Assembly (NCBI GenBank): GCA_029263415.1
Contig: JAJCXN010000041.1
Span: 141,338 to 205,337, forward strand
From: Acidobacteriota bacterium
Lineage (GTDB): Bacteria > Acidobacteriota > Thermoanaerobaculia > Multivoradales > Multivoraceae
Direction of reading: 5' to 3'
DNA length: 64,000 nucleotides
The notes beneath the pieces are model-generated. The model was not told where the DNA came from. It saw nothing but the letters and a program-made list of their open reading frames with translations, and searched no databases. Position numbers and translations under genes: made by a program. This document shows, in pieces, positions 1,588 through 56,271 of the stretch; the stretch's first letter is position 1, and each line of letters opens with the position of its first letter.

Positions 1588-3609
1588 CTACCTCAGAGTG
1601 ACGCTGGTGGTGTCGCTGCCGCCCTTTTGGGCACGCAACGTGATGTCTATGGTGTCGCCGCGCTTACCGCGAATGATCCAAGTGAACGACTCTCTTGCCC
1701 CCGAGCCTGCGAGCGACGCCACCGTACTGGTCTTGGAGTTGCCGGTCATCACTGCTTCGGGTTCGATCTGGATCTGAACCGTCACAGGATCGACCGCTCG
1801 AGAGGTCACGCCGTGTTTGAGCGCTGTTGGGAAGTAGCCGGTGTTTTCGATCTCGGCGGTTACCGTGAAAATGCCGCCACCGTGATCTGTGACCTTGGTG
1901 TCTGCAAAGCTCACCTTGGGCAACATCTCGAGCAGTTGCACTGCGAACGCTCCATGCTTAGAGCCGAGCTCATCAACCGCGGCCGAAGGTGCCGGGTTGG
2001 TCAACGCGTAGGGTTCGAAGCCACCGATTTCGACCGCTCCCAGTTGAGGGTGATCGAAGCTTTCCCAGGTGCGGAAGCCGGGTGTCGGTTCGCCTTCTTG
2101 GACTTGGCTCGCGAGGCCCTTGAGTAGGGCTGCGTCTGAAGCGTCGGCTGCAGCGGCGCTGCCTGAAGCACCGCCCCGGCCGCCTCGTCCAGAGGCTCCA
2201 GGTGGTCCGCCTCTGCCTCCGCGTCCGCCCGGTCGGCCTCGACCCTGAGTCGACGTGGCCTCTCCAGCGGTTGCCGCAACGTCTGAAGCGCTGGTCTCTT
2301 CGCTAGGAGAACCGTCCCCTTCGTCAGGGGTTGCTTCGCCGGTTTCGGCCTTAACGAAGCTCCAGCCTGGAGTGGAGAAAGAGGGCACGCCGAACTGAAA
2401 GTAGCCGAACTGAAAGAAGGCGCCCTCGGGTGCCCTGCGGTAGACGGTTTCTGTCACCCCGGTGGTCTCTTTGTAGGTCTCGGCGACCTTCTTGAAGTAC
2501 GGTTGGTCTCCCTTGTTGACTGCAGTCTCGGGCCGGCGGCCTGAGGCAGGATCGTTGTCGCGACCCTTTTGCGCGCCACGCAATGGTGGAGTCGCAGATG
2601 CGACTCCGAAGAATCGGCCGAAGCGACGACCACCTGGCCCGCCTTCGCGATAGTTGCCCACGCTCAACGCAGGAGCATTGGAGGCGCTAGCGAATCGCTC
2701 GAGATCGATGGCGGTGGGGTCCTTTGGGTTGCCATCGCTATCGACGTCATTAGCGAGGTTGTCGCTGTGGCCGAAGGTCAGGATTGCCGCGATGTTGCGA
2801 TGACTGACCATGAAGTCCATCAGTGCTCGCGATTCGCTTTCGCTGACCATGTAGCGGCCAGCGTCTGCCTTCCAGTAGGGGTAGGCGTGCTGAAAGTTGC
2901 GGTTGAGATCGGTGCCGCCGGGGCCGTCTTCGTTGTAGAAGCCGTCGCCGTCGGTGTCTCGGCCCTCCCAGTAGACCGCGTGGGTTCCAGATTCGCCTTT
3001 AGCCGCGTCAGCTTTGGCCATCAAGCGCAATTCATCGGATTGGATCTGGTACTCGCCGTCGGTGTCGAGCACGCGCATCTGCGTGATGAAGCCATCGCCG
3101 TTGAGGTCTTCGGGTGGGTCCTCGTCAATACGACCGTCGTTGTCGTCGTCGTAAGGGGTTGCATTGCCGCGTCGGTTCCACTGCGGTGTTGAGAAGTAGC
3201 TCTCTGCACCGTCTGGGTTGAGGCGTGGAATCACATACACAACGTTGTCTTTGAGGGTGGCTGCCGCATCCTCCGATTGCAGCAGGTGCTCGATTGTCCC
3301 CACCGCGAGCGCGCTGCCGACTAGGTGGTCGCCCTCGAGGTTGGCGACGATCAGGAGGCCTGGTCGATGCTCCGGTTGTTGCGTTCCCTCGGCGGCAATC
3401 TCGACTACCCACAGCTCACGACCTTCTGAGGATGTGCCGATGGATGAGAGTTGGGCGAGCTCGGAAGTGCTGGCGAGTTGCCGGAGCTCTTGGGTCAATC
3501 CGTTGTGATCTTGATACGCCGGTTGCGCGCTCGCGGCGATGCTAGTGAGGGCGGCGGCGATCGCGATTGGCGCGATAGCGGACCAGCCGAGTTTGGAGGA
3601 TGGCGTCAC
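1588..3609 (-). CDS. Peptidase M14-family protein (paralog B), secreted, with a Gly/Arg-rich low-complexity insert
   Basis: 673-aa ORF with a signal peptide (MTPSSKLGWSAIAPIAIAAALTSIAASAQ). It carries M14-like segments (DEDPPEDLNGDGF, FGHSDNLANDVD) homologous to paralog A. A low-complexity tract GRGRPGGRGGRGGPPGASGRGGRGG is encoded around 2160-2260. Confidence 0.75.
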   Translation of the reverse strand: MTPSSKLGWSAIAPIAIAAALTSIAASAQPAYQDHNGLTQELRQLASTSELAQLSSIGTSSEGRELWVVEIAAEGTQQPEHRPGLLIVANLEGDHLVGSALAVGTIEHLLQSEDAAATLKDNVVYVIPRLNPDGAESYFSTPQWNRRGNATPYDDDNDGRIDEDPPEDLNGDGFITQMRVLDTDGEYQIQSDELRLMAKADAAKGESGTHAVYWEGRDTDGDGFYNEDGPGGTDLNRNFQHAYPYWKADAGRYMVSESESRALMDFMVSHRNIAAILTFGHSDNLANDVDSDGNPKDPTAIDLERFASASNAPALSVGNYREGGPGGRRFGRFFGVASATPPLRGAQKGRDNDPASGRRPETAVNKGDQPYFKKVAETYKETTGVTETVYRRAPEGAFFQFGYFQFGVPSFSTPGWSFVKAETGEATPDEGDGSPSEETSASDVAATAGEATSTQGRGRPGGRGGRGGPPGASGRGGRGGASGSAAAADASDAALLKGLASQVQEGEPTPGFRTWESFDHPQLGAVEIGGFEPYALTNPAPSAAVDELGSKHGAFAVQLLEMLPKVSFADTKVTDHGGGIFTVTAEIENTGYFPTALKHGVTSRAVDPVTVQIQIEPEAVMTGNSKTSTVASLAGSGARESFTWIIRGKRGDTIDITLRAQKGGSDTTSVTLR

Positions 3610-5750: not shown

Positions 5751-6929
5751 GTGAAGCGGCTCGCGGTTTTTCTCGACGGGACCTGGAATGACCCAGCTAG
5801 CAGGACCAATGTGTCTCGGCTGCACGGCTTGGTCGCTGACGTTGGCACAGATGGCGCACGACAACTCGCGTACTACGACACAGGCGTCGGCACCAAACGC
5901 TTTGAGAAGCTGCGGGGTGGCGTGGGTGCTTATGGGCTCTCTAGGAACGTCAGACAAGCCTACGGCTGGCTGAAGGAGCAGTACGAAGAGGGAGATGAGG
6001 TCTTCGTCTTCGGTTTCAGTCGGGGAGCGTTCACCGCGCGCAGCGTTGCAGGAATGATCGCTCGCTATGGGTTGCTTATGCCCGACTCGTCGGTGACGGT
6101 GGATGAACTCTACGAGCTCTACCGCGCCGAAGCGAAAGGCAAGCCTGGGCCGGGCTCTGTGGAGGAGGCCCTTGTTAGTCGCTTGAAAGAGAATGCCCGC
6201 CGGATACGCGTCCGCTTTGTCGGCGTCTGGGACACGGTCGGTACTTTGGGTGTGCCGTTTGGAAACATCCCGGGTATCAGTCGCAAGCAGTTTCGCTTCC
6301 ACAACACCCGGCCCAGCCGATGGATCGACGAAGGGTGTCAGGCGCTTGCGATCAATGAGAATCGAAGGGCCTACGACGCCGTGTTGTGGACCAACTTTCT
6401 GGCCTTGAATCCTGCGACCGGGAAGATCGCCGACCCACTGCGCCGTTCGCAGGTTCACCATCCGTCGTTCGAACAACGGTGGTTCATTGGAGTGCACTCG
6501 AACGTCGGCGGTGGTTATCCAGATGACGTTCTAGCTCTGCCGCCACTGTCATGGATCCAACGCCGCGCCGCCGGTGCGGGCCTGGCCTTCACCGCTACTG
6601 TTGCGTTGAGCGGTGACGAGCACTTGCGAGGAGAGCTGGTTGACTCGTTCAAGAGGTTCATGAAGGGCATCTATCAGATCGTCCGGTTCAATCGGCGTCA
6701 CTATCGCGAGATCGGTCGAGCCCTGGTGGAACGCAGCGGTCGCTCGGTCGGCTTGCTGGAGACAGTCAACGAGAGCATCGATCGCACGGTGATCGAACGC
6801 TGGCAGCAGGACGGTGAATACCGGCCAAAGAATCTGCGCGAGTTCGCCGATCGAGCCGGCATCGACCTTGAGGCGCCGGCGCCTGCTGACAGCCTAAAGG
6901 TCGAGAGCGACTGGGACTCTCACACCTAG
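5751..6929 (+). CDS. DUF2235 alpha/beta-hydrolase (Tle1-like phospholipase family)
   Basis: The N-terminus MKRLAVFLDGTWND and YYDTGVGT are hallmarks of DUF2235. It has a GxSxG nucleophile elbow (GFSRG) and a VWDTVG block. GTG start, with AGGGA about 9 nt upstream. Confidence 0.7.
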   Translation: MKRLAVFLDGTWNDPASRTNVSRLHGLVADVGTDGARQLAYYDTGVGTKRFEKLRGGVGAYGLSRNVRQAYGWLKEQYEEGDEVFVFGFSRGAFTARSVAGMIARYGLLMPDSSVTVDELYELYRAEAKGKPGPGSVEEALVSRLKENARRIRVRFVGVWDTVGTLGVPFGNIPGISRKQFRFHNTRPSRWIDEGCQALAINENRRAYDAVLWTNFLALNPATGKIADPLRRSQVHHPSFEQRWFIGVHSNVGGGYPDDVLALPPLSWIQRRAAGAGLAFTATVALSGDEHLRGELVDSFKRFMKGIYQIVRFNRRHYREIGRALVERSGRSVGLLETVNESIDRTVIERWQQDGEYRPKNLREFADRAGIDLEAPAPADSLKVESDWDSHT

Positions 6930-9246: not shown

Positions 9247-10248
9247 CTAGCGCTGCCGGGCCTGCCACTGCTTGCTCAACTGTTGCAAGCTTGCTGGTGT
9301 GAGTCGGCGATTGTCGAGCACCTTCGATAGTTCGAGAATGTGCGGTTGCAGCGGCATCATGACGCTGAGGGCCTGATAGGTCCCCATGGCCTTGCCGTAG
9401 TCTCCGTTGAACAAGTACGCGTCGCCTCGGCGAAAGTAGGCGCTGATCCCGCCGGGGTTGGCCTCAATGCTCCGGTCGAATGCCGCGATCGCTTCGGGAT
9501 ATCGATGTGTGAGCATTAGATACCAGCCGGCGTTCGACAGTTCGTCAGCCTTCTTGGGCAGTGCCGGAGGCGACCGATCGAGCGACGATGTGCTGATCCC
9601 AGTGGCCACCGCGCTCGCCGTGGTGTAGTTGAACAAGAAGAGGTCGAGATCGAATTCGAGAGTGGTCCCGAGCGAATCTAGACCTAGTTCCGAGGTGTCG
9701 ACCTTCATCTTTCCTTTGGCTTGGAGATAGCTTTCGTTTTTGCCGTTGACTTCTACTTTGCCAGGGGCGACAAGGTGCAAGGTTGCTGAGGTCGATCTCG
9801 ATTTCACAATCAACGTTCCTTTGAGTGCCACACCGCCCGGAGACTTGCTGGCGGACTCGCTTTGAAACGCGATGAATGGATGGTGCTCGAAATCGAATGC
9901 GTCGCTCAGTTTCTTGGCCACGCTGCCCTCGAGGTCTTCTAGGCCGTCAGTTCGCAAGAGCAGAGTTGCTGAGGTTGCTTCTGGCTGGTCGTGTCTATAG
10001 AAGAATGTTCCGTTGAACTTGGCCATGGCCGCTTTGCCAGCGCCGGGAACGCCCACCGCCACCTTCATCCGTTTGCCCGACGTCATCAGTCGCGAACTCA
10101 TTTCGAAGTTCGCAGAGGGGCCTGCGACTGGTATGTCTTTGATGGTCGGCTGCGCGGTGCCAAGAGCCGGAAGCGCTATCACGAACAGAAAGCCGATGCT
10201 CCACGAGACGATTTCGTTGATTTGACGATTGGGTTCGATTGATCTCAC
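9247..10248 (-). CDS. YceI-like domain protein with C-terminal TPR repeats, secreted
   Basis: YceI-like blocks (FDFEHHPFIAFQS, GTLIVKS) followed by TPR-like helices (AIAAFDRSIEANPGGISAYFRRGDAYLFNGDYGKAMGTY). GTG start with AAGAGGA upstream. Confidence 0.65.
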   Translation of the reverse strand: MRSIEPNRQINEIVSWSIGFLFVIALPALGTAQPTIKDIPVAGPSANFEMSSRLMTSGKRMKVAVGVPGAGKAAMAKFNGTFFYRHDQPEATSATLLLRTDGLEDLEGSVAKKLSDAFDFEHHPFIAFQSESASKSPGGVALKGTLIVKSRSTSATLHLVAPGKVEVNGKNESYLQAKGKMKVDTSELGLDSLGTTLEFDLDLFLFNYTTASAVATGISTSSLDRSPPALPKKADELSNAGWYLMLTHRYPEAIAAFDRSIEANPGGISAYFRRGDAYLFNGDYGKAMGTYQALSVMMPLQPHILELSKVLDNRRLTPASLQQLSKQWQARQR

Positions 10249-17262: not shown

Positions 17263-18318
17263 TCAATCCTGGGTCGCTTCTTGCGCGCGGCGTTGCAACT
17301 CCTCCCTTTCTAGAAGTCGAGCTCCGCGCAGGATGCCGCCCATGGCGTAGTTGCCTTCGTGACAGGCGTATTCGTACAGCCGGTCGTCGGTCAGCGGCCA
17401 CATTTGCGCGCCCGAATAGGGGGCTGCATAGTTTGTATCGTTGACCGTGAACTCATAGAGCAGTTCGTTCTGATTCTTGCGAGTGAAACGTTCGACGATG
17501 TGCAAACCCTCGCGGGCTTGGTTGGGCGTTTCGAGGAAGTTAGTGGTATCCACAACCAGCGTGTCGCCTTCCCAATGGCCGATGGAGTCGCCGCCGAGTG
17601 ATCGGATGTCCGACGGCGGGTGTTCGCTATTGAGGCGAATGACGCGGGCCCAGTGCATCCATTCCACCAAGATCATCACGTGGTTGTCGGTCTGCACGAT
17701 CGTCTTGAGGTTGTTGTAGAGCACCGAGCGCATTGGCACGGTGGTGACTGTGAGATAGATGCAGCGCTCGATCAGCGGCAGCGTTTCCGGATTGTCGTAC
17801 GGTCCACTCTCGAGATCGAGCCACCAGGCGTTGCCGGTGTTCTCGAAGGTGTAGGGGCGGATCTTGGCGAGACGCGCTTTGCCCGCTGAGGACAACGCCG
17901 GCATCTGACCATTGGGCGGATCGGTGAGCACCGAGGTGCGGTACTTGTCGCCGATCTTGAACATGCTGTTGCCCGGGTCGACCCAGAAGCTGTTGTAGCC
18001 GCCAACTTTGCCGGCAGCGCCAGCCGAGCCGTCGCCTCCGGGAGGCGGTGCCTCGCGGTTGGGATCGCTGTCGCGATCGGCGAAAGCCATGGCCGCCGCT
18101 GCGGAGCGCTCGATGGCCTGCGCCTGTTCGTCGGTGAGTTCCTGTTGATCGCCGAGCCCTGCCGCGCGGGTGAAAGGGGTGAGGGTCGCGATGTCGTAGT
18201 TGCCGGAGAGGTCTGGACGACCGCTTGGGGTCCTCGGCACTTCGTCTTGACTCAGGACTGGAAGGGAAATGAGGCTGAGAAGAACAGCGAGTGGAATGAT
18301 GTGTGGTGTCTTGGACAT
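17263..18318 (-). CDS. Conserved secreted protein of unknown function (paralog 1 of 2 in the window)
   Basis: Signal peptide MSKTPHIIPLAVLLSLISLPVLSQ. Shares PRTPSG.PDLSG.YDIATLTP, GGYN.FWVD, VLYNN, WxGDTLVV.T.NF and the C-terminal YEYACHEGNYAMGGIL with the ORF at 55159-56271. GGAGAG lies upstream of the ATG at 18318. Confidence 0.6.
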   Translation of the reverse strand: MSKTPHIIPLAVLLSLISLPVLSQDEVPRTPSGRPDLSGNYDIATLTPFTRAAGLGDQQELTDEQAQAIERSAAAAMAFADRDSDPNREAPPPGGDGSAGAAGKVGGYNSFWVDPGNSMFKIGDKYRTSVLTDPPNGQMPALSSAGKARLAKIRPYTFENTGNAWWLDLESGPYDNPETLPLIERCIYLTVTTVPMRSVLYNNLKTIVQTDNHVMILVEWMHWARVIRLNSEHPPSDIRSLGGDSIGHWEGDTLVVDTTNFLETPNQAREGLHIVERFTRKNQNELLYEFTVNDTNYAAPYSGAQMWPLTDDRLYEYACHEGNYAMGGILRGARLLEREELQRRAQEATQD

Positions 18319-18557
18319 AGCGCTCTCCGGAAAGTTCACGCGTCGTTGCCAGAACCGTTGGGGCCTCGTCGAGGACAAGGGTGGTTTCGGTAGGAGGGGG
18401 CCTTTGATGGACGCGAACCCTGAGTGTACCGGTAGCGTGTTTGGCCGGAGCTAGATGGTGTCGGCGCCTAGCATCGCACGCTCCCACTTGCGGTGAGCGC
18501 GATTTGCCGATCAACTACTGCCCAATCCCGACGACGAACTGCTTGAGGCTCCTCGAT

Positions 18558-28505: not shown

Positions 28506-28542
28506 GAGTTGACCTCGGTCCGCTAGGCCCGAGGTCAACCTC
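28506..28542. terminator. Candidate bidirectional terminator hairpin between the convergent SSS and TPR genes
   Basis: ttgacctcgg / ccgaggtcaa is a perfect 10-bp stem with a 10-nt loop. The flanking T-rich tract is weak. Confidence 0.35.
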
Positions 28543-28571: not shown

Positions 28572-29771
28572 CTAGCTGGGAGTGGGCGGTGGCCCACCGG
28601 TTCGAATGTTGACCGCAGCCTCATCGGCTTGGCGCTTTTGTTCGATCAGATCGGCGCGCTGCTTGTTGAACTCCTCGGCTTTTGCGTTCTCCAGCGCGAT
28701 CAAGCGGTTGGCCTCGACGCGTGCAACGTCGTCGGTCCTATTTGCCGCCGTGTAGGCAGAGATGGCCTCGTCGTACCTCTTCTGCATTTCAAAGATGAAG
28801 CCGAGTTGTTCCGAGGTCTGCGTTGTCTGATGCGCATCGGTCGCGAGCCCAAGAGCCATGGTCAGTTGCCCTTCTGCCGCTACGTACTTCTGGTCGAGGA
28901 GAAGTGCGCGTCCGCTAAGGAACGTGAGCAACCAATCGCCCTTTGTTGCAACCGCCGCAACGGTCGCGGTGCTCAGTAGCTCCGCTGCTTGGCTGTAACG
29001 TTGAGCGTTGATCAGTACGTCGGCGTAGAGCGCTGTCGTGTTGCGGTTTGGATTCGCCTCAAAGGCCAATGCGGCCGGTTCCAGGGCAACTGTGTAAAGG
29101 GCGAGTCGCTCAGGCGCTTCAGCAGCGAGCGCTTGGTCGACCAACGCGGCAACTTGAGCCCTGCGAATTTTCGCGTCGGTAGGCTCGATCTCGACGGCCT
29201 TCGCGAACGCCGAGGCTGCGTCGGTGAAGCGGTTCGCCTTCTTTAGCGCGACCCCGTAGGTCGCCCAAGCGCTGGCGGTGCCGGTGACTTTGGCGAGTTG
29301 TTCGAGGTCGCCGAGTCGATCGCCACTGCATGCCGCTTTGGCCCGCAGCTTGTAGAGGGCGACCTGGAACTGTGCGCTCACCGTCGCGGCGTCGACGCGA
29401 TCAAGAACCACGCAGGCATCTTCGGGTTTCTCGATCGCTAATAGCGCCTTTGCCAAGGTCAGCAGGATCGCTGGTTGACCGCTGTGTAGCTCATCTGCGC
29501 GCCTTAGGTGTGCCGCCGCTTTCTGAGCGTCACCGGCGTTCAACAGCCCGGTGTTCAACAGTGCGGTGCCGAGCATTTGGTGGCCTTGATATGCGTCGGG
29601 CGCAGTTTCGACGTAGCGCGCAAAGGCAGCGGCAGCTTCTTCATGCTTGCCAGCCTGGTACGCGGTCACGCCTTGGTCCCAATCGCCGTTCGCCCAAACG
29701 GACGGCGCCAAGGCCGCCATCGCTAGTAAAGCGAGGAGTGGGGTGAACCGGGTGTTGGTGGGCTTGCGCAT
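28572..29771 (-). CDS. TPR-repeat protein with signal peptide
   Basis: Signal peptide MRKPTNTRFTPLLALLAMAALAPSVWA. Multiple TPR-like helical pairs (AYQAGKHEEAAAAFARYVETAPDAYQGHQMLGTALLNTG...). Confidence 0.65.
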   Translation of the reverse strand: MRKPTNTRFTPLLALLAMAALAPSVWANGDWDQGVTAYQAGKHEEAAAAFARYVETAPDAYQGHQMLGTALLNTGLLNAGDAQKAAAHLRRADELHSGQPAILLTLAKALLAIEKPEDACVVLDRVDAATVSAQFQVALYKLRAKAACSGDRLGDLEQLAKVTGTASAWATYGVALKKANRFTDAASAFAKAVEIEPTDAKIRRAQVAALVDQALAAEAPERLALYTVALEPAALAFEANPNRNTTALYADVLINAQRYSQAAELLSTATVAAVATKGDWLLTFLSGRALLLDQKYVAAEGQLTMALGLATDAHQTTQTSEQLGFIFEMQKRYDEAISAYTAANRTDDVARVEANRLIALENAKAEEFNKQRADLIEQKRQADEAAVNIRTGGPPPTPS

Positions 29772-30007
29772 GTGTGGCTCCTTTGGTTGTTGAGCCGGAG
29801 ATCTCGACTGAGATGCTCCAAGGCGTCACGGAAGTCTCTGCCACATCGGCCGGTTTCCGGCGCGCAGAGCTTGGAGTTGCAACTCTCGTACCGGTTTGCT
29901 CGCGCTTGCCGCTTCGATTGTCTTGTCTGGGCGCATGTAGACTCTGCGGCCTGACATCCACGTCCAAGCCACATATCCAAACAATGCGGAAGGGTAGAGA
30001 CACGCGC

Positions 30008-31699
30008 ATGCCGAGCAGATCCGAAGCCCTGAGCCAACTCACTGCAGCCGGTGAACCGTTCGAACTAGACCTGTGTGAGCTGTACGGACAAGAGTGTCGG
30101 TACTTCAAGACGGCACCGCCGACGCTGCACGAGCTGTACGAGAGAGCTCGAGGTGCCTTGGACTTCGTGGTGTACCAAGAGGAGCGGTACAGCTATGAGG
30201 AGACCTATCGCGCGGCGTGCCGAATCGCAACGGTGTTGGTCGAGCAATACGGGATCGAGCGTGGTGATCGGGTGGCGATTTCGATGCGCAACTATCCCGA
30301 GTGGATTTTTTCATTCATGGCTGTGACCTCGATTGGAGCCGTCGCGGTGGCGATGAACGCGCTGTGGGAATCGGACGAAATGGCCTACGGCCTGGCCGAC
30401 AGCGGCGCCAAGGTTTTGTTGGCCGATCAAGAAAGGTTGGATCGCTTTGTCGGTTGCTCAGAACCGCCCGATCTCAAGGTCATCGTCGTGCGTCCCACCG
30501 AAGATCTACCTGAGGGCGTAGCGGACCTTGTTGATCTGCTGAGCGCCCTACCGTCGGAGGTCGCAGAGATGCCAGCTGTGGATTTCGGCCCTAACGACGA
30601 TGCGATAATTCTCTACACCTCGGGTTCAACCGGGCATCCAAAGGGCGCGGTGAGCTGTCACCGCAACGTGATCAGTGCGCTGTATTCGTGGCAACTAGAT
30701 CTTGCGGCGCATGTGATCGAAACCGAAGTGGTGCCTGAAGAGCCAGAGCATCAGCCGGCAACACTGCTGGCGGTGCCGCTGTTTCATGCAACTGGATCGC
30801 ATGCTGTCTTTCTGAACTCGTTCCCGACGCAACGCAAGATCGTGTCCATGTACAAATGGGACACCGAACTCGCAGCCGAACTGATCGAACGTGAACACAT
30901 TTCTTCGTTCATCGGCCCAGCAGCGATGACCGGTGATCTAGTGCTCGCGGCACATCGGAGCCAGCGCGACCTGAGCTCGTTGGTGAGCGTTGGCGGCGGT
31001 GGTGCGCCTCGAGCTCCCGAGCAAGTGGCGGGGATCGATGCAGCATTCACCAACGCGCTACCTGGAACCGGCTGGGGGATGACCGAGACCAACGCTATCG
31101 GTGTGGGGATCGGTGGCGAGCACTATCTCGAGCGACCGGAGAGTTCGGGGCGTTGTTCGGCTGTGCTTGAGCTAAAGGTGGTTGATGAGGCTGGAGCCGA
31201 GGTGGCCACTGGGGAGCGGGGTGAGTTGTTGGTGCGTGGCACGTCGGTCATCCGTGGGTACTGGAATCGGCCCGACGCGAATGCTGAGACCTTCGTCGAT
31301 GGTTGGTTGCGGACTGGCGACGTTGCGTATCTCGATGAAGATGGATTCTTGTTCATCGTCGATCGAATCAAGGACTTGGTGATCCGAGGTGGGGAGAACA
31401 TTGGCTGCGGTGAAGTTGAGGCGGCCTTGCTGGAACATCCGGAGGTACTCGAGGCATCGGTGTATGCGGTGCCGGATGAGCGGTTGGGAGAAGAGGTTGG
31501 GGCGACTGTTTACTGCGGAGTGGGTGGTGGTGTGGATGAGGGCGTGCTGCGGGAGTTCTTGGTTGGGCGATTGGCGAAGTTCAAGGTGCCTAGGTATTTG
31601 CGGGTGGTGGATGAGGCGTTGCCACGGATTGCTTCGGGCAAGATTTTCAAGCGGGGGATTCGGGAGGCGGCTTTGGGGGAGTTGGGGGTTTCGGTATAG
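30008..31699 (+). CDS. AMP-dependent synthetase/ligase (acyl-CoA synthetase family)
   Basis: AMP-binding motif ILYTSGSTGHPKGAV and a C-terminal lid (GWLRTGDVAYLDEDGFLFIVDRIKDLVIRGGENI). Start chosen at the ATG at 30008 (MPSRSEAL...); the track start 29774 is likely an over-extension. Confidence 0.8.
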   Translation: MPSRSEALSQLTAAGEPFELDLCELYGQECRYFKTAPPTLHELYERARGALDFVVYQEERYSYEETYRAACRIATVLVEQYGIERGDRVAISMRNYPEWIFSFMAVTSIGAVAVAMNALWESDEMAYGLADSGAKVLLADQERLDRFVGCSEPPDLKVIVVRPTEDLPEGVADLVDLLSALPSEVAEMPAVDFGPNDDAIILYTSGSTGHPKGAVSCHRNVISALYSWQLDLAAHVIETEVVPEEPEHQPATLLAVPLFHATGSHAVFLNSFPTQRKIVSMYKWDTELAAELIEREHISSFIGPAAMTGDLVLAAHRSQRDLSSLVSVGGGGAPRAPEQVAGIDAAFTNALPGTGWGMTETNAIGVGIGGEHYLERPESSGRCSAVLELKVVDEAGAEVATGERGELLVRGTSVIRGYWNRPDANAETFVDGWLRTGDVAYLDEDGFLFIVDRIKDLVIRGGENIGCGEVEAALLEHPEVLEASVYAVPDERLGEEVGATVYCGVGGGVDEGVLREFLVGRLAKFKVPRYLRVVDEALPRIASGKIFKRGIREAALGELGVSV

Positions 31700-31914
31700 T
31701 GGTCGCGGTCGCGGTCGCGGTGGCGGTGGCGATGCTGTGGGGCGCGAGCGATCGTTCGGTGATTGATCGCGATTGGAGTGGCGTCTTCGCTCCTTTCGGC
31801 GGATCGGGATCCCCCTCGTAGGCACCGGCTGCGGCCTTGTCTTGAGCGGTTAGGCGTTGCCTTGCCTGCGCACTCGTCGCTCACATCGCGGTGGGCTTCA
31901 CGAGCGCGTTTGTG

Positions 31915-32570
31915 AAGGGCTCCTCGCGAGCTGCCGACTCGGGGGACGCCCTCACCGCCTTCGTCGCTAGTGAAGCTGAATCGCGATGGTGTTTGCGAAG
32001 AGGGCATCTTGGGACGTGGTGGCAAAGGGGGAGAGCTGTGCCCGGGAGTGGAAAGTCGAGGCCTGGGCTGCGTGAACGGAACCCACAAGGGGGTGAGGGC
32101 TCAGTCCACGCAGCCCAGGCCGATGGTTCATGATCCTTCTCGACGCTGCGCGCCTCGACGAGGGATGTAGAGCTCCTTCTTGGGGCTCAACGGTTCGCTC
32201 GTCTAGGGTCGCTCCAAGCCACCGGGTAGATCCGCGATTGTGGCGTCGGTTCAATGACGGGCATTGGACACGGCGGGCAACCTACTTCAACTTGCCGGTG
32301 ATCAACGTCACCTCCACGAGTTTGGCGTAGCCAAACGAGCCGATCCTCCGAAACACTTGGTTTGGGCTGCGTGAACGGAGCCCTCACCTGTTGCGGGTTC
32401 CGTTCACGCAGCCCAAGCCTCCCGCGCCCAAACCCCGGCGACCACCTTTCCCCTTTGCCATCGCGCCCCAAGCTGCCCCGATCGCAAGCACCGCGAGATC
32501 AAGCTTCACTAGCGACGAAGGCGGTGAGGGCGTCCCCGACGGGGGCAGCTCGCGAGAGAGCCCTTCAACA
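31915..32570. repeat. Large imperfect nested inverted repeat (~650 bp) containing two REP-like hairpins
   Basis: The left arm 31924-31987 is nearly identical to the reverse complement of 32502-32566. The inner hairpins 32071-32130 and 32362-32416 are reverse complements of each other, and each is itself a hairpin (gggctgcgtgaacgga ... tccgttcacgcagccc, 16-bp stem). Confidence 0.6.
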
Positions 32571-33361
32571 GCACCAATCGAGAAGCACACCAAGTTGCGG
32601 GCGACCGAGTGGCAGGCAAGACCACGCCTACCCGCTCAGGACAAGGTCGCAGCCGGTGCCCCCAGAGGGGATCCCCGATCCGCCGAAAGGAGCGAAGACG
32701 CCCAGGATCTCGAAGCTGTTCAGCTTCTTCGCCCTCCCTCCCTCCCTCCCACCGCATTCCAGTCACCCTTTCGATCGTGATCCCAAACGCTCCACCCTCA
32801 CCCCCAAACCCGAGAGTCGCCAATAACTTCACCCTTGCGCTCCTCCAACCTCAACCGCTAGAGTCCCCGCGAGTCGAGACCCACTCAATCGCCGCCACCC
32901 TCCTGGCCCCGATCGAGTCCCAAACCAAAGAGGCTATGAATATGTGTGACACAACAGCAACACAAGTAGCGATTGTCGGTTTACCGACGATGATGCTGAT
33001 GAGCCCTCTTGGTACTGAGACTTCTCTAATCGCCGAGCTCTCTCAGAAGATGGAGTCTCCTCAACTGGTCACCAAGATCCGCTAACGCCTTCCGGGATCT
33101 TCGCGCCAGTTATTTGCAGGCTCTTGTTCCTAGAGCCACTCTTCGGCATCCCCAGTCGGGACGACGCTGCGTTCAGCCTTAGCCAGGCGTGCGGCGTTGT
33201 TGCGTTCTTGGCTGATTGTTGATGACTGCGCTTGACGGTTGCCTCCTGTGGTCGCCTGCCGACCCGGGGGACCGTTAAGCATGAATCTGATTTCACTGTT
33301 TGGTTAGGTGTCATTCCTTCCAAGGGTTGATCGCCTGCAAACGTTCTTGAGTATTTAAGTT

Positions 33362-34768
33362 ATGTCTCATATCGATACTTCGTACCGTCGCATCATCCGT
33401 ATTGGTTCGCCGGTAATCATCTCTCAATTGTCCTACACGGCTATGGGCGTCATCGACACCATGATGGTTGGTCGGCTTGGTATTGCCGAGCTGGGGGGCG
33501 TGGGCCTGGGCAACATGATCGCTTGGTGGCTCTTGAGCGGTTTTTACGGCGTCTTGAGCGTGGTGAATACCTACGTTGCACAGTCGGTGGGGGCGAATGA
33601 CCGGCGAGGCGTTGGGCGTACACTGTGGCACGGCATCTACCTGGCGATCGGGTTTGGTGCACTGATCACTGTGTCTTCGCTGTTTGTGCCTTGGTTGTTG
33701 AGTCTGACCGGCGCGAACTCTGGTTTCCTTGAGCTCGCGACCAGCTACGCACAGGTGCGCTTGCTGGGCGGTTTCGGGCTCACGATGCTCTTGGTCGCTG
33801 ACAATTTCTACCGAGGCCTAGGCCGCACCGATATTCCGATGTGGGGTGCGTGGTGTCAGTTGTTGCTCAACTGCGGACTCAACTATGCGTTGATCTTCGG
33901 CAAGTTCGGTGCCCCGGCGATGGGTGTCGTTGGAGCTGCGCTGGGAACTGTGATCGCTCAGACGTTGGTGGGGTTCTCGCTGTTGGCGAGCATCTTCATG
34001 GCCAAGACCTATCGTCGTCGCTACTTACTACCTAGAACCCGACGGCTCGATCCTGCTGTGCTGAAGACCCTGCTTGTGGTCGGGTTGCCTATCGGCGTTC
34101 AGTTCTTCATGGAGATGGGAGGCATTGCGCTCTTTTCAGCGCTGATCTCGCGCTTGGGGGAAGCGGAGATGGCGGCGACCAACGCTGTGATTCAAGCGTG
34201 GAGCGTCACTTTCATGATCGGGGCTGCGCTAGCGGTCACAGCCACGACCTTGGTCGGACAGTGTCTCGGTGCTCGCCAGCTGGAAGATGCTCGAGTGGCG
34301 GTCGCCAAGATCATGAAGTTGGGTGGGGCGTTCACCGCCGCTTGTTCGGTGTTCTACATCGGCTTCCCCGAGTTCTTGATGCGAGCCTTTGTCGAGGAGG
34401 GCGATGTGGCGGAGCTGATCCCCTACGCGCGCCCGCTCTTCGCCATTGTGGTGGTGTGCCTGTTCTTTGATTTGCGCTTCAATCTGATTTCAGGGGCGCT
34501 GCGCGGCGCTGGGGATACCACCTACAGCATGTTGGTCAACATCGGCAGCGCTTGGTTGGTGTTCGTTCCACTCACCTTCTTGATGATCGATCGTTTTGGC
34601 TTGGTGGGGGCATGGTGGTGTTTGGCGGTGCATGTGGCGTTGATGGCGTTGTTGCTCGAGATTCGGTACCGCGGCTCACGCTGGATCGAAGTGTTTCTTG
34701 CGCGTCAGGATCCAGCGAAGAAGAGGCGGGCGCAACAGGTGTCTGCGACTGAAGCACCGGTGGTTTGA
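33362..34768 (+). CDS. MATE family efflux transporter (NorM-like)
   Basis: 12-TM protein. The N-terminal SPVIISQLSYTAMGVIDTMMVGRLG matches the MATE signature region. Confidence 0.85.
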   Translation: MSHIDTSYRRIIRIGSPVIISQLSYTAMGVIDTMMVGRLGIAELGGVGLGNMIAWWLLSGFYGVLSVVNTYVAQSVGANDRRGVGRTLWHGIYLAIGFGALITVSSLFVPWLLSLTGANSGFLELATSYAQVRLLGGFGLTMLLVADNFYRGLGRTDIPMWGAWCQLLLNCGLNYALIFGKFGAPAMGVVGAALGTVIAQTLVGFSLLASIFMAKTYRRRYLLPRTRRLDPAVLKTLLVVGLPIGVQFFMEMGGIALFSALISRLGEAEMAATNAVIQAWSVTFMIGAALAVTATTLVGQCLGARQLEDARVAVAKIMKLGGAFTAACSVFYIGFPEFLMRAFVEEGDVAELIPYARPLFAIVVVCLFFDLRFNLISGALRGAGDTTYSMLVNIGSAWLVFVPLTFLMIDRFGLVGAWWCLAVHVALMALLLEIRYRGSRWIEVFLARQDPAKKRRAQQVSATEAPVV

Positions 34769-34843
34769 CCGAGTGTTATCGCTGTTACAATCAGCGTTGG
34801 TACCGATCCCCTGTCTTCTCCACCGATTCTCAAGGACCCTACA

Positions 34844-35443
34844 ATGATGAAATTCAACACCTCACGCGACTTGCGCAGTCCTCTGCTTCTGCTTCTTATC
34901 CTCTTTGTTGGTTTTGGGCTTGGTGCTTGTGCCAGCGGCGGTGGTTCTGTGGATGCACCTGCTGCCGCGCCTGCCCCAGTGAAGAAGGCGTTCGTCGCGC
35001 CTGAGTGGGACTCAACCGAGTTCCGCAGCGAGGACGGGGTGTTCTTCCTCCACTATCCCTCAGATTTTGAAGTGCAACCCGTGCAGGCTGGTGGCCTACT
35101 CAGTGTTGCGTCTCCCTCGTTGGTGCCGCGGGTGGATGTCAACCAGTTGGCGGGCATTGGTGATTCCTCGATGGAGGAGGTCGGTTCAGGGCTTGTGACG
35201 ACAATGAAGCAGCTTGGCGGCGGTGAAGCGGAAATCACCGCCGCGAAAATGGTGAAGCTCAGCGACGAGGTCACCGATGCCATGCGCTTCGACATCAACT
35301 GGTCGTTTCAGGGGTTCCCGTTGAGCAGTGTCGCACTAGTAGTGCCCACGGATGACTACGCCATCAATGTGTTGGTGACTGGTATGGATGGCGGTGACGT
35401 AGCTGAGCTTGAGGGCATCGCCAATACGCTGACTCTTCCCTAG
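34844..35443 (+). CDS. Hypothetical lipoprotein
   Basis: Lipobox-like signal LLLILFVGFGLGAC with AAGGA upstream. No known domain recognised. Confidence 0.5.
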   Translation: MMKFNTSRDLRSPLLLLLILFVGFGLGACASGGGSVDAPAAAPAPVKKAFVAPEWDSTEFRSEDGVFFLHYPSDFEVQPVQAGGLLSVASPSLVPRVDVNQLAGIGDSSMEEVGSGLVTTMKQLGGGEAEITAAKMVKLSDEVTDAMRFDINWSFQGFPLSSVALVVPTDDYAINVLVTGMDGGDVAELEGIANTLTLP

Positions 35444-55158: not shown

Positions 55159-56271
55159 GTGACTTTTGTAGGTTCGGTTCGTGTCCCCGTACTGTTATAC
55201 GCGATCGCACTGCTTCTGATTGCATCTCCTGGCCAAGGTCAGGAGATTCCTCGCACCCCAAGTGGCATGCCCGACCTCTCAGGCACCTACGACATCGCCA
55301 CTCTTACGCCGCTGTCGCGACCAGAGGAGTTCGGTGACAAGTTGTTCTTGACCCAGGAAGAAGCCGATGCGATCCGCACCCGTGAGGCCGAGTATCGCCA
55401 GTTGCGGGACCTGCCTACCGATCCCGACCGCTCCGCGCCTCGCGCGGGAGGCGCACCGCCGGTTGGGTTGGACGATTCTCAGAGTGAACGCAGTGGCGCC
55501 GGCAACGTTGGTGGGTACAACAACTTTTGGGTCGATCGGGGTAGTGAGGCCTTTGCCGTGGACGGTCGCTACCGCACGTCGATCATCACCGACCCCAAGA
55601 ACGGTCGCCAGCCAGCCATGACCCCAGAGGCCCGCGCTCGACGGGCCCAGCGTTTTCGTTTCTACAAGCCTAACGACGGCAAGGCGTGGTGGGTGGCGAG
55701 CAAGGATCCTGGCCCCTACGACGGACCGGAAAGTCTGTCGTTGGGAGAACGTTGCTTGGTTGGGTTTGGTTCAACCGGGGGCCCGCCGATGCTTTCGGTG
55801 CTCTACAACAATCACAAACGGCTCGTTCTAACCGATGATCACCTGATGATTCTCACTGAGATGGTGCATGACGTGCGCATTGTGCGGATCGCACAACCGG
55901 GAGAAGGAGAGCACAGCCCGGCTGATCTTCGCCATTGGCTCGGCGATTCGGTCGGCCGTTGGCAGGGTGACACTCTGGTGGTCACCACCAAGAACTTTCG
56001 GGAAACACCCGCCTTTACTTCAGCCAGTCCCGAAATGGTGGTGACCGAGCGCTTCTCGATGCTCGACGGCGACACGCTGTTCTATGAGTTCACAGTCGAC
56101 GACGCCGCCACCTGGACTGCGCCCTGGGCCGGTTCTTACACCTGGCCCGCGACCGACAAGAAGGTATACGAGTACGCCTGTCACGAAGGCAACTACGCCA
56201 TGGAGGGCATTCTCAAGGGCGCCCGGCTGCTCGAAGCGGAAGCACTAGCCGCGGCTTCGACTGACGACTGA
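55159..56271 (+). CDS. Conserved secreted protein of unknown function (paralog 2 of 2)
   Basis: GTG start with a perfect AAGGAGG Shine-Dalgarno sequence. Signal peptide. ~50% identical by eye to the ORF at 17263-18318, including the C-terminal YEYACHEGNYAMEGIL. Confidence 0.65.
   Translation: MTFVGSVRVPVLLYAIALLLIASPGQGQEIPRTPSGMPDLSGTYDIATLTPLSRPEEFGDKLFLTQEEADAIRTREAEYRQLRDLPTDPDRSAPRAGGAPPVGLDDSQSERSGAGNVGGYNNFWVDRGSEAFAVDGRYRTSIITDPKNGRQPAMTPEARARRAQRFRFYKPNDGKAWWVASKDPGPYDGPESLSLGERCLVGFGSTGGPPMLSVLYNNHKRLVLTDDHLMILTEMVHDVRIVRIAQPGEGEHSPADLRHWLGDSVGRWQGDTLVVTTKNFRETPAFTSASPEMVVTERFSMLDGDTLFYEFTVDDAATWTAPWAGSYTWPATDKKVYEYACHEGNYAMEGILKGARLLEAEALAAASTDD

Follow-up and report, generated by a model that had tools for sequence, protein, structure and literature searches.

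The 64,000-nt window analysed here is taken from contig JAJCXN010000041.1 of an Acidobacteriota bacterium, and all coordinates are positions in this window, read on the forward strand. A gene for an AMP-binding acyl-CoA synthetase (acs; open reading frame (ORF) 29774-31699, likely start 30008) is followed on the same plus strand by a MatE efflux gene identified by Pfam (33362-34768). The spacer between the acs stop at 31699 and the MatE start at 33362 measures 1662 nt, and it holds an imperfect palindrome of 923 bp (31780-32702), in which two arms of about 340 nt are inverted copies of each other around a unique core (Table 1).

A gapped local alignment of 31780-32117 with the reverse complement of 32702-32363 gave 283 identical bases out of 331 aligned (85%), and a global alignment of the complete arms gave 285 identical columns out of 351 (81%). 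The similarity of arm to arm had an E value of 1e-76 in BLASTN and 3e-112 in nhmmer. The inverted symmetry is therefore real and far beyond chance, and no other long local inverted repeat occurs in the window. It also ends abruptly: the outer flanks beyond the arms aligned with a score of 16, compared with 12.2 +/- 1.8 (maximum 18) for shuffled sequences, and an extension of the symmetry into the 3' end of acs or into the C-rich right flank was not significant. The 26-nt core of the terminal repeat and the 28-nt core of the longest identical block each have exactly two matches in the window.

Table 1 Features of the palindrome between acs and the MatE gene
Feature	Position	Length	Basis or remark
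Left arm, including its inner hairpin	31780..32121	342 nt	Gapped alignment, BLASTN, nhmmer
Right arm, inverted copy of the left arm	32359..32702	344 nt	Gapped alignment, BLASTN, nhmmer
Unique core between the arms	32122..32358	237 nt	No similarity to the arms or to the rest of the window
Left exact terminal inverted repeat (GGCGTCTTCGCTCCTTTCGGCGGATCGGG)	31780..31808	29 nt	
Right exact terminal inverted repeat	32674..32702	29 nt	
Identical block, left copy	31942..31977	36 nt	Longest exact run in the arm alignment; source of the common peptide SFTSDEGGEGVP
Identical block, right copy	32502..32537	36 nt	Longest exact run in the arm alignment
Left hairpin, inner end of left arm	32060..32121	60 nt	28-bp imperfect stem, 86% complementary
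Right hairpin, inner end of right arm	32359..32419	60 nt	28-bp stem, 89% complementary

A first-pass annotation of this DNA had described a nested, foldback-like inverted repeat of about 650 bp (31915-32570) in a gene-poor gap of 1.6 kb. The structural description holds, as does the gap, which also contains a conserved 49-codon ORF at 32936-33085, whereas the size fell short of the 923 bp measured here. The arms that it gave, 31924-31987 and 32502-32566, exist and are only the best-conserved part of the full arms. Their identity, called near-perfect, was overstated: these 63 nt are 87% identical without gaps and enclose the 36-nt exact block, and the complete arms are 81-85% identical. The two inner hairpins that it reported are present, with stems of 28 bp, although the left one had been placed about 10 nt too far to the right.

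The arms are spanned by long mirror ORFs (31510..32088 on the minus strand, 32391..32780 and 32362..32826 on the plus strand) of 192 and 129-154 codons, respectively. These share three peptide islands, MxVPFTQPxP, SFTSDEGGEGVP, and RSAERSEDA, and between the islands the homologous arm DNA falls in different reading frames. Between the arms we counted 16 indels of one base, none of a triplet, 25 transitions, and 25 transversions. The GC content at second codon positions is 0.56-0.67 in the ORFs of the palindrome, compared with 0.44-0.51 in six real neighboring genes, and is flat over the codon positions; for the 66-codon core ORF (32130..32330), it is 0.58. No Pfam match was found for the ORFs of the palindrome, and no protein homolog was found for the core ORF. 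When 5.8 billion protein clusters were searched with a six-frame translation of 31770-32712, nothing matched at E <= 1e-3, not even the sequence itself, so no annotator had called a gene in the palindrome. The arms are non-coding: protein-coding arms are excluded by the frame drift, the 1-nt indels, the flat GC, and the lack of any Pfam match or six-frame homolog, and the mirror ORFs carrying SFTSDEGGEGVP are artifacts of symmetry, as had been proposed, since the frames drift between the copies. That the arms are an inverted pair of pseudogenes, or decayed protein-coding sequence, is suggested by the length of the mirror ORFs, which span the arms, but every one of these observations speaks against it, and we regard it as barely credible.

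The two hairpins at the inner ends of the arms are the longest of the window. The next intergenic hairpin (28508-28539, directly after an SSF gene) has a stem of 14 bp, and the few inverted pairs that are longer but weaker (74-80% complementary) sit within genes. The predicted RNA folding energy of the left hairpin is -44.3 kcal/mol on the plus strand and -53.5 kcal/mol on the minus strand (z -5.4 and -9.9), and that of the right hairpin is -54.8 and -46.7 kcal/mol, respectively (z -8.7 and -7.6); none of 200 shuffled sequences was as stable. As read from the sequence, the stem mismatches are asymmetric and follow the opposite order in the right hairpin, which indicates that the hairpin was copied, inverted, together with its arm. 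The transition-type mismatches of both stems would be G-U pairs on one and the same sense of the unit (minus on the left, plus on the right), and this sense folds 8-9 kcal/mol better as RNA. This strand bias consists of three events only and is not significant (about p 0.25 by our arithmetic).

Such folding raises the possibility of a functional structured RNA or regulatory element at this locus, be it a long hairpin RNA from the spacer, a pair of small RNAs that each contain the 28-bp hairpin, or a selected terminator or insulator that governs read-through from acs into the unit of small ORF and MatE. Besides the very stable predicted folds and the shared G-U sense, it could draw on the location of the element between two co-directional genes and on three blocks conserved beyond the arm average: the exact runs of 36, 26, and 21 nt in the arm alignment have a sum that only 0.5% of column shuffles reach. 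This uneven identity could reflect either constraint on the blocks or patchwise homogenization. As for stability, the whole element has a predicted fold of -675 kcal/mol (z -28), but an extreme value of this kind follows automatically from an inverted duplication. An arm without its hairpin barely folds better than shuffles (z -2.0), and the core alone is mildly stable (z -3.1). A transcript is thus predicted to fold into an extreme hairpin, as the first-pass annotation had supposed for a structured RNA, but no Rfam family was matched: at E <= 1, Rfam 15 returned only spurious miRNA-precursor hairpins of plants and animals, at 21-29 bits compared with gathering thresholds of 120-268, and no tRNA or tmRNA was found. 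A known RNA family or a tRNA-derived element was rejected for this reason. Within 31500-33500, no sigma-70-like promoter was detected, core included, and there was a single weak terminator-like site, which is no more than in shuffles; no T-tract terminator lies in or beside the palindrome. The element is also missing from the closest relative (see below), which keeps the neighboring small-ORF block. A functional RNA or regulatory element is accordingly improbable in our judgement.

Further copies of the element were sought in the window and in sequence collections. Within the window, the palindrome alone contains the 26-nt terminus, the 28-mer from the conserved block, and the half-stem of the hairpin, and a sensitive BLASTN search and an nhmmer profile of both arms recovered only the two arms. 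A 20-mer from the 36-nt block had no match in 185,579 species genomes of GTDB (one per species, the source genome not being among them). The 17-nt hairpin half-stem had 92 single matches in these genomes, spread over unrelated phyla, where our arithmetic gives an expectation of about 70; none of them was paired, and none extended. In JGI metagenome contigs, no match was found for 22-mers taken from the terminus and the 36-nt block, and plasmids and phages gave no match in a blastn search in its distant mode. In IMG/VR, there was one 18-mer match, AT-rich and by chance, and no hairpin match. The arms, the terminal block, and the hairpin are thus confined to a single locus in the window and in the collections scanned.

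The two hairpins had earlier been compared with the REP (repetitive extragenic palindromic) sequences that form BIMEs (bacterial interspersed mosaic elements) or REPINs and are mobilized by RAYT (TnpA-REP) transposases (PMC2817692, PMC8266576, and PMC8049555). Likenesses exist: these are GC-rich, imperfect, intergenic hairpins in units of opposite polarity, and here two 60-nt imperfect palindromes lie in opposite polarity 299 nt apart, with a 20-nt half-stem that, read from the sequence, is itself weakly palindromic. REPs, however, exceed 100 copies per genome (PMC2817692), while only two hairpins are present in the 64 kb and none was found elsewhere. They are not free-standing units either, as they are embedded in the duplicated arms of 340 nt, and homology continues for 280 nt beyond each of them. 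No RAYT (Y1 transposase) was identified among the 36 ORFs of the window scanned by Pfam, which represent most of its long ORFs; nor was any transposase, integrase, or invertase. That the hairpins belong to a genome-wide family of REP or REPIN type is therefore extremely unlikely.

The main rival to the reading that we favor below is a low-copy foldback or MITE-like element (MITE, miniature inverted-repeat transposable element), non-autonomous and moved by a transposase encoded elsewhere. It could consist of a single 923-bp unit with terminal inverted repeats of about 340 bp, or of two inverted insertions of about 342 nt lying 237 nt apart. Exact 29-nt termini within 338-nt arms of 85% identity, and the absence of any symmetry beyond 31780 and 32702, are what such an element would show; there is, moreover, about 1 kb of extra DNA relative to the closest relative, and no coding capacity. 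The junctions read ...GATTGGAGT / GGCGTC...GACGCC / CAGGATC..., and the flanks of the element read ...GCGATTGGAGT / element / CAGGATCTCGA.... A target-site duplication, which it was earlier suggested to look for at about 31915 and 32570, is absent at the true ends of the element, as no direct repeat of 2-10 nt was found at 31779/31780 and 32702/32703. The window holds no second copy; this is weak evidence, because by our arithmetic a family numbering a few tens of members in a genome of several Mb should have fewer than one more member in 64 kb. The conserved blocks were, however, also unmatched in the species genomes, metagenomes, IMG/VR, plasmids, and phages listed above, and no transposase was seen among the scanned ORFs of the window. 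Furthermore, arms that have diverged by 15-19%, with many indels, would be unusual for a recently active element with perfect termini. The arms are also about ten times longer than the terminal repeats of typical bacterial MITEs. With the Correia, ERIC, and RUP elements (PMC2229807), the palindrome shares its non-coding, intergenic nature, its terminal inverted repeats, its sharp ends, and its folding into a long hairpin; it differs in that its 923 bp exceed the usual MITE range and in that neither target-site duplication, second copy, nor cognate transposase was found. Mobility of this kind is, on balance, unlikely, although it deserves more weight than any of the other rivals, and the likeness to MITE, REP, or BIME families suggested at first is not borne out by the tests applied here.

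Several other classes of palindromic sequence were considered and rejected. A replication origin or terminus is excluded, since no GC-skew switch occurs anywhere in the window. No core sites of an integron attC site or cassette (R''(RYYYAAC)...R'(GTTRRRY)) are present at the hairpin bases, the polarity is inverted, and the window encodes no integrase. The resemblance to the 38-bp ends of Tn3-type transposons (GGCGTCT.. compared with GGGGTCT..) comes with neither a TAAG end nor a 5-bp duplication. The palindrome is accordingly an orphan long inverted repeat in the collections searched, and no membership in the MITE, REP/BIME, inverton, attC, or Rfam families has been demonstrated for it.

The proteins flanking the palindrome are singletons in clustering at 90% identity, and the annotations of their relatives name metagenome-assembled genomes of Acidobacteriota or Thermoanaerobaculia. 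One ENA contig, hereafter L002, is the only close and the only syntenic relative (88% amino acid identity for MatE and 86% for acs); its gene order matches that of the window over a TPR gene, acs, MatE, and six or more genes downstream, where the nucleotide identity is 74-80%. The acs-MatE spacer of L002 measures 656 bp compared with 1662 bp in the window, and no counterpart of the palindrome is found in it; a resemblance by eye between the left arm terminus and the L002 spacer was not significant. The sole conserved block of the spacer is 32929-33088 of the window, which corresponds to 3315-3474 of L002 at 75% identity, with weaker homology that may begin at 32857. From the acs stop to this block, the distance is about 1.23 kb in the window and about 0.18 kb in L002. 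The first-pass annotation had named a single copy, with arms conserved as protein-coding sequence in relatives, as what would speak against its element. The palindrome is indeed single-copy as far as searched, but its arms are not protein-coding in relatives and are absent from L002.

Between the window and L002, 65% of the four-fold degenerate sites differ in acs and 60% in MatE, which is near saturation, whereas the arms differ from each other by 15-19%. It follows that the inverted repeat arose, or was last homogenized, well after the lineages of the window and of L002 had split. The acs-MatE adjacency is not kept in the more distant relatives L003, L004, L099, L100, L101, and L102.

Other repeats were observed in the same spacer. 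(GGTCGC)x5 occupies 31701-31731, directly after the acs stop codon, and (CCCT)x4.8 lies to the right of the palindrome at 32732-32750. The spacer of L002 has its own, unrelated tandem repeat of 3 x 22 nt at 3228-3293. The acs-MatE spacer evidently accumulates slippage-type events and is unstable in the sister lineage as well.

The 49-codon ORF (MNMCDTTATQ...SPQLVTKIR*; plus strand) lies directly upstream of MatE, within the sole conserved block. The corresponding ORF of L002 (3322-3471) has the same length, and its N- and C-termini are conserved, while the differences per codon position number 17/20/14 and thus show no third-position bias. In L100, a 71-aa ORF (9647-9862) starting with MCDTTT is found upstream of MatE. 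The source annotation gives a 102-aa ORF from the GTG at 32777 (P0122), and this self-match was all that a HMMER search of 1.8 billion sequences returned. Possibly the small ORF serves the efflux gene as a leader peptide or an RNA leader.

Two contigs from an independent Logan assembly of the short reads of SRR15505518 match the window at 100% and cover 29093-31810 (L098) and 32857-35335 (L001). The last 31-mer of the left contig has the first base of the palindrome as its own first base, and the positions of this contig 2688-2716 match 32702-32674 at 100%, the full 29-nt terminal identity. The right contig starts 155 nt past the right arm, where homology to L002 appears to resume. Both are only about 2.5 kb long, and 31811-32856 is left unbridged. 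In a graph of k = 31, which we take to be that of Logan, the 29-nt terminal repeat should not break the assembly by itself, as it is one short of the 30-nt overlap. The breaks could instead be due to additional copies, to about 1.05 kb being polymorphic for presence or absence, to variation between strains, or simply to low coverage. The left break is where a repeat boundary in such a graph would fall and so agrees with a mobile element, but the right break at 32857 does not coincide with the right edge of the palindrome at 32702. Rather improbable, in our estimation, is that the palindrome is the first sighted copy of an undescribed long-arm foldback family, or a long-hairpin-RNA locus, of an uncultured Acidobacteriota-like lineage, still polymorphic in the population. 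A new element of this kind would explain both the break just inside the left edge and the restart where the homology to L002 resumes.

The unbridged interval, which no second assembly confirms, might also point to a chimeric or fold-back join in the metagenome-assembled contig. Artifactual fold-backs, however, are exact reverse complements, and an artifact is unlikely here because the arms differ by 15-19%, with 16 indels; there is also a unique core, and both Logan contigs match the window perfectly as far as they reach into the structure. With no exact repeat longer than 36 nt, a larger k would be able to resolve the region. We consider an assembly artifact highly improbable.

A unique segment of small size, bracketed by inverted repeats and located immediately 5' of a drug-efflux gene, also recalls invertons, in which case homologous recombination or an invertase would flip the 237-nt core and control the small ORF or MatE. 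Neither an invertase or other recombinase gene (among the scanned ORFs of the window) nor a promoter-like site in the core (within 31500-33500) was found, and the Logan breaks lie outside the arms and not at their inner junctions. The arms are far longer and more diverged (15-19%) than the repeats of known invertons. Such a DNA inversion switch is very unlikely.

We tentatively favor, at a little under an even chance, a locally generated inverted duplication, or quasi-palindrome, that has been kept patchily homogenized. A spacer stretch of about 340 nt, with a 60-nt hairpin already in it, would have been duplicated in inverted orientation around the 237-nt core, by a strand or template switch in replication or repair at the locus, once the lineage had separated from its nearest sequenced relative. 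Point substitutions and 1-nt indels would then have driven the copies apart, while patches such as the 29-nt termini, the 36-nt block, and the hairpin stem stayed identical or were re-homogenized, through gene conversion or template switching within the molecule. This course of events fits a pair of inverted copies that share one locus, are lacking in L002, and are younger than the split. Template switching between imperfect inverted-repeat arms is described as homogenizing and expanding repeats (PMC8604942, PMC13100816, and PMC8794818), and the patchy identity of the arms agrees with such homogenization. Bacterial and yeast quasi-palindromes attributed to template switching (the same sources and PMC7202029) resemble the palindrome in being imperfect inverted copies at one locus with patchy identity; here, too, the copies are lineage-specific and lie in a rapidly evolving spacer with no mobility genes. 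The palindrome is nevertheless far larger, with its 340-nt arms and 237-nt spacer, than the short repeats usually discussed, and neither the switch junctions nor the parent copy were identified.

Several observations weigh against a local duplication. Sharp edges and an identity that peaks at the very ends (29/29) are what transposase-bound terminal inverted repeats would show. Microhomology at template-switch junctions was not demonstrated, and the sequences outside the arms are not significantly complementary. No outgroup has the acs-MatE adjacency, and a deletion in L002 could also account for its shorter spacer. The Logan breaks, finally, may point to additional copies or to a polymorphic presence of the element, and not to a duplication fixed at this locus.

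The palindrome could have a physical effect on the expression of its neighbors. RNA reading through from acs would form a duplex of about 340 bp capped by the core, and such a duplex would be a strong barrier to transcription and a target of RNases, insulating the unit of small ORF and MatE. We saw no evidence of a dedicated function.

Elsewhere in the window, two ORFs of about 370 aa without a Pfam match (17263-18378 on the minus strand and 55159-56271 on the plus strand) have DNA stretches that are 76% identical, inverted, and 38 kb apart; they are probably paralogs. Two direct repeats of 73-74 nt with 71-77% identity (within 729-973 and 2895-3139) are spaced exactly 2166 nt apart, one of them inside a Peptidase_M14 ORF (1588-3609), which suggests tandem paralogous genes or an internal duplication. 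The ORF 5751-6929 on the plus strand strongly matches the catalytic domain of Tle1-like phospholipase effectors of the type VI secretion system (E 3e-67); it adjoins a P450 gene and an MFS transporter gene, and no other gene of this secretion system was seen in the window.

An annotator could mistake a striking palindrome of 0.9 kb with long mirror ORFs for genes, a MITE, or a REP cluster. Although real, the feature is of an ordinary kind, and the main value of the analysis is a clean negative, namely that the palindrome is non-coding, orphan, and lineage-specific. It also provides a small usable case for the origin and persistence of such structures, with 340-nt arms, a 237-nt spacer, patchy homogenization, and an origin that can be dated to after the split from the sequenced relative. 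Should further copies be present in the source genome, the palindrome would define a new foldback-type element.

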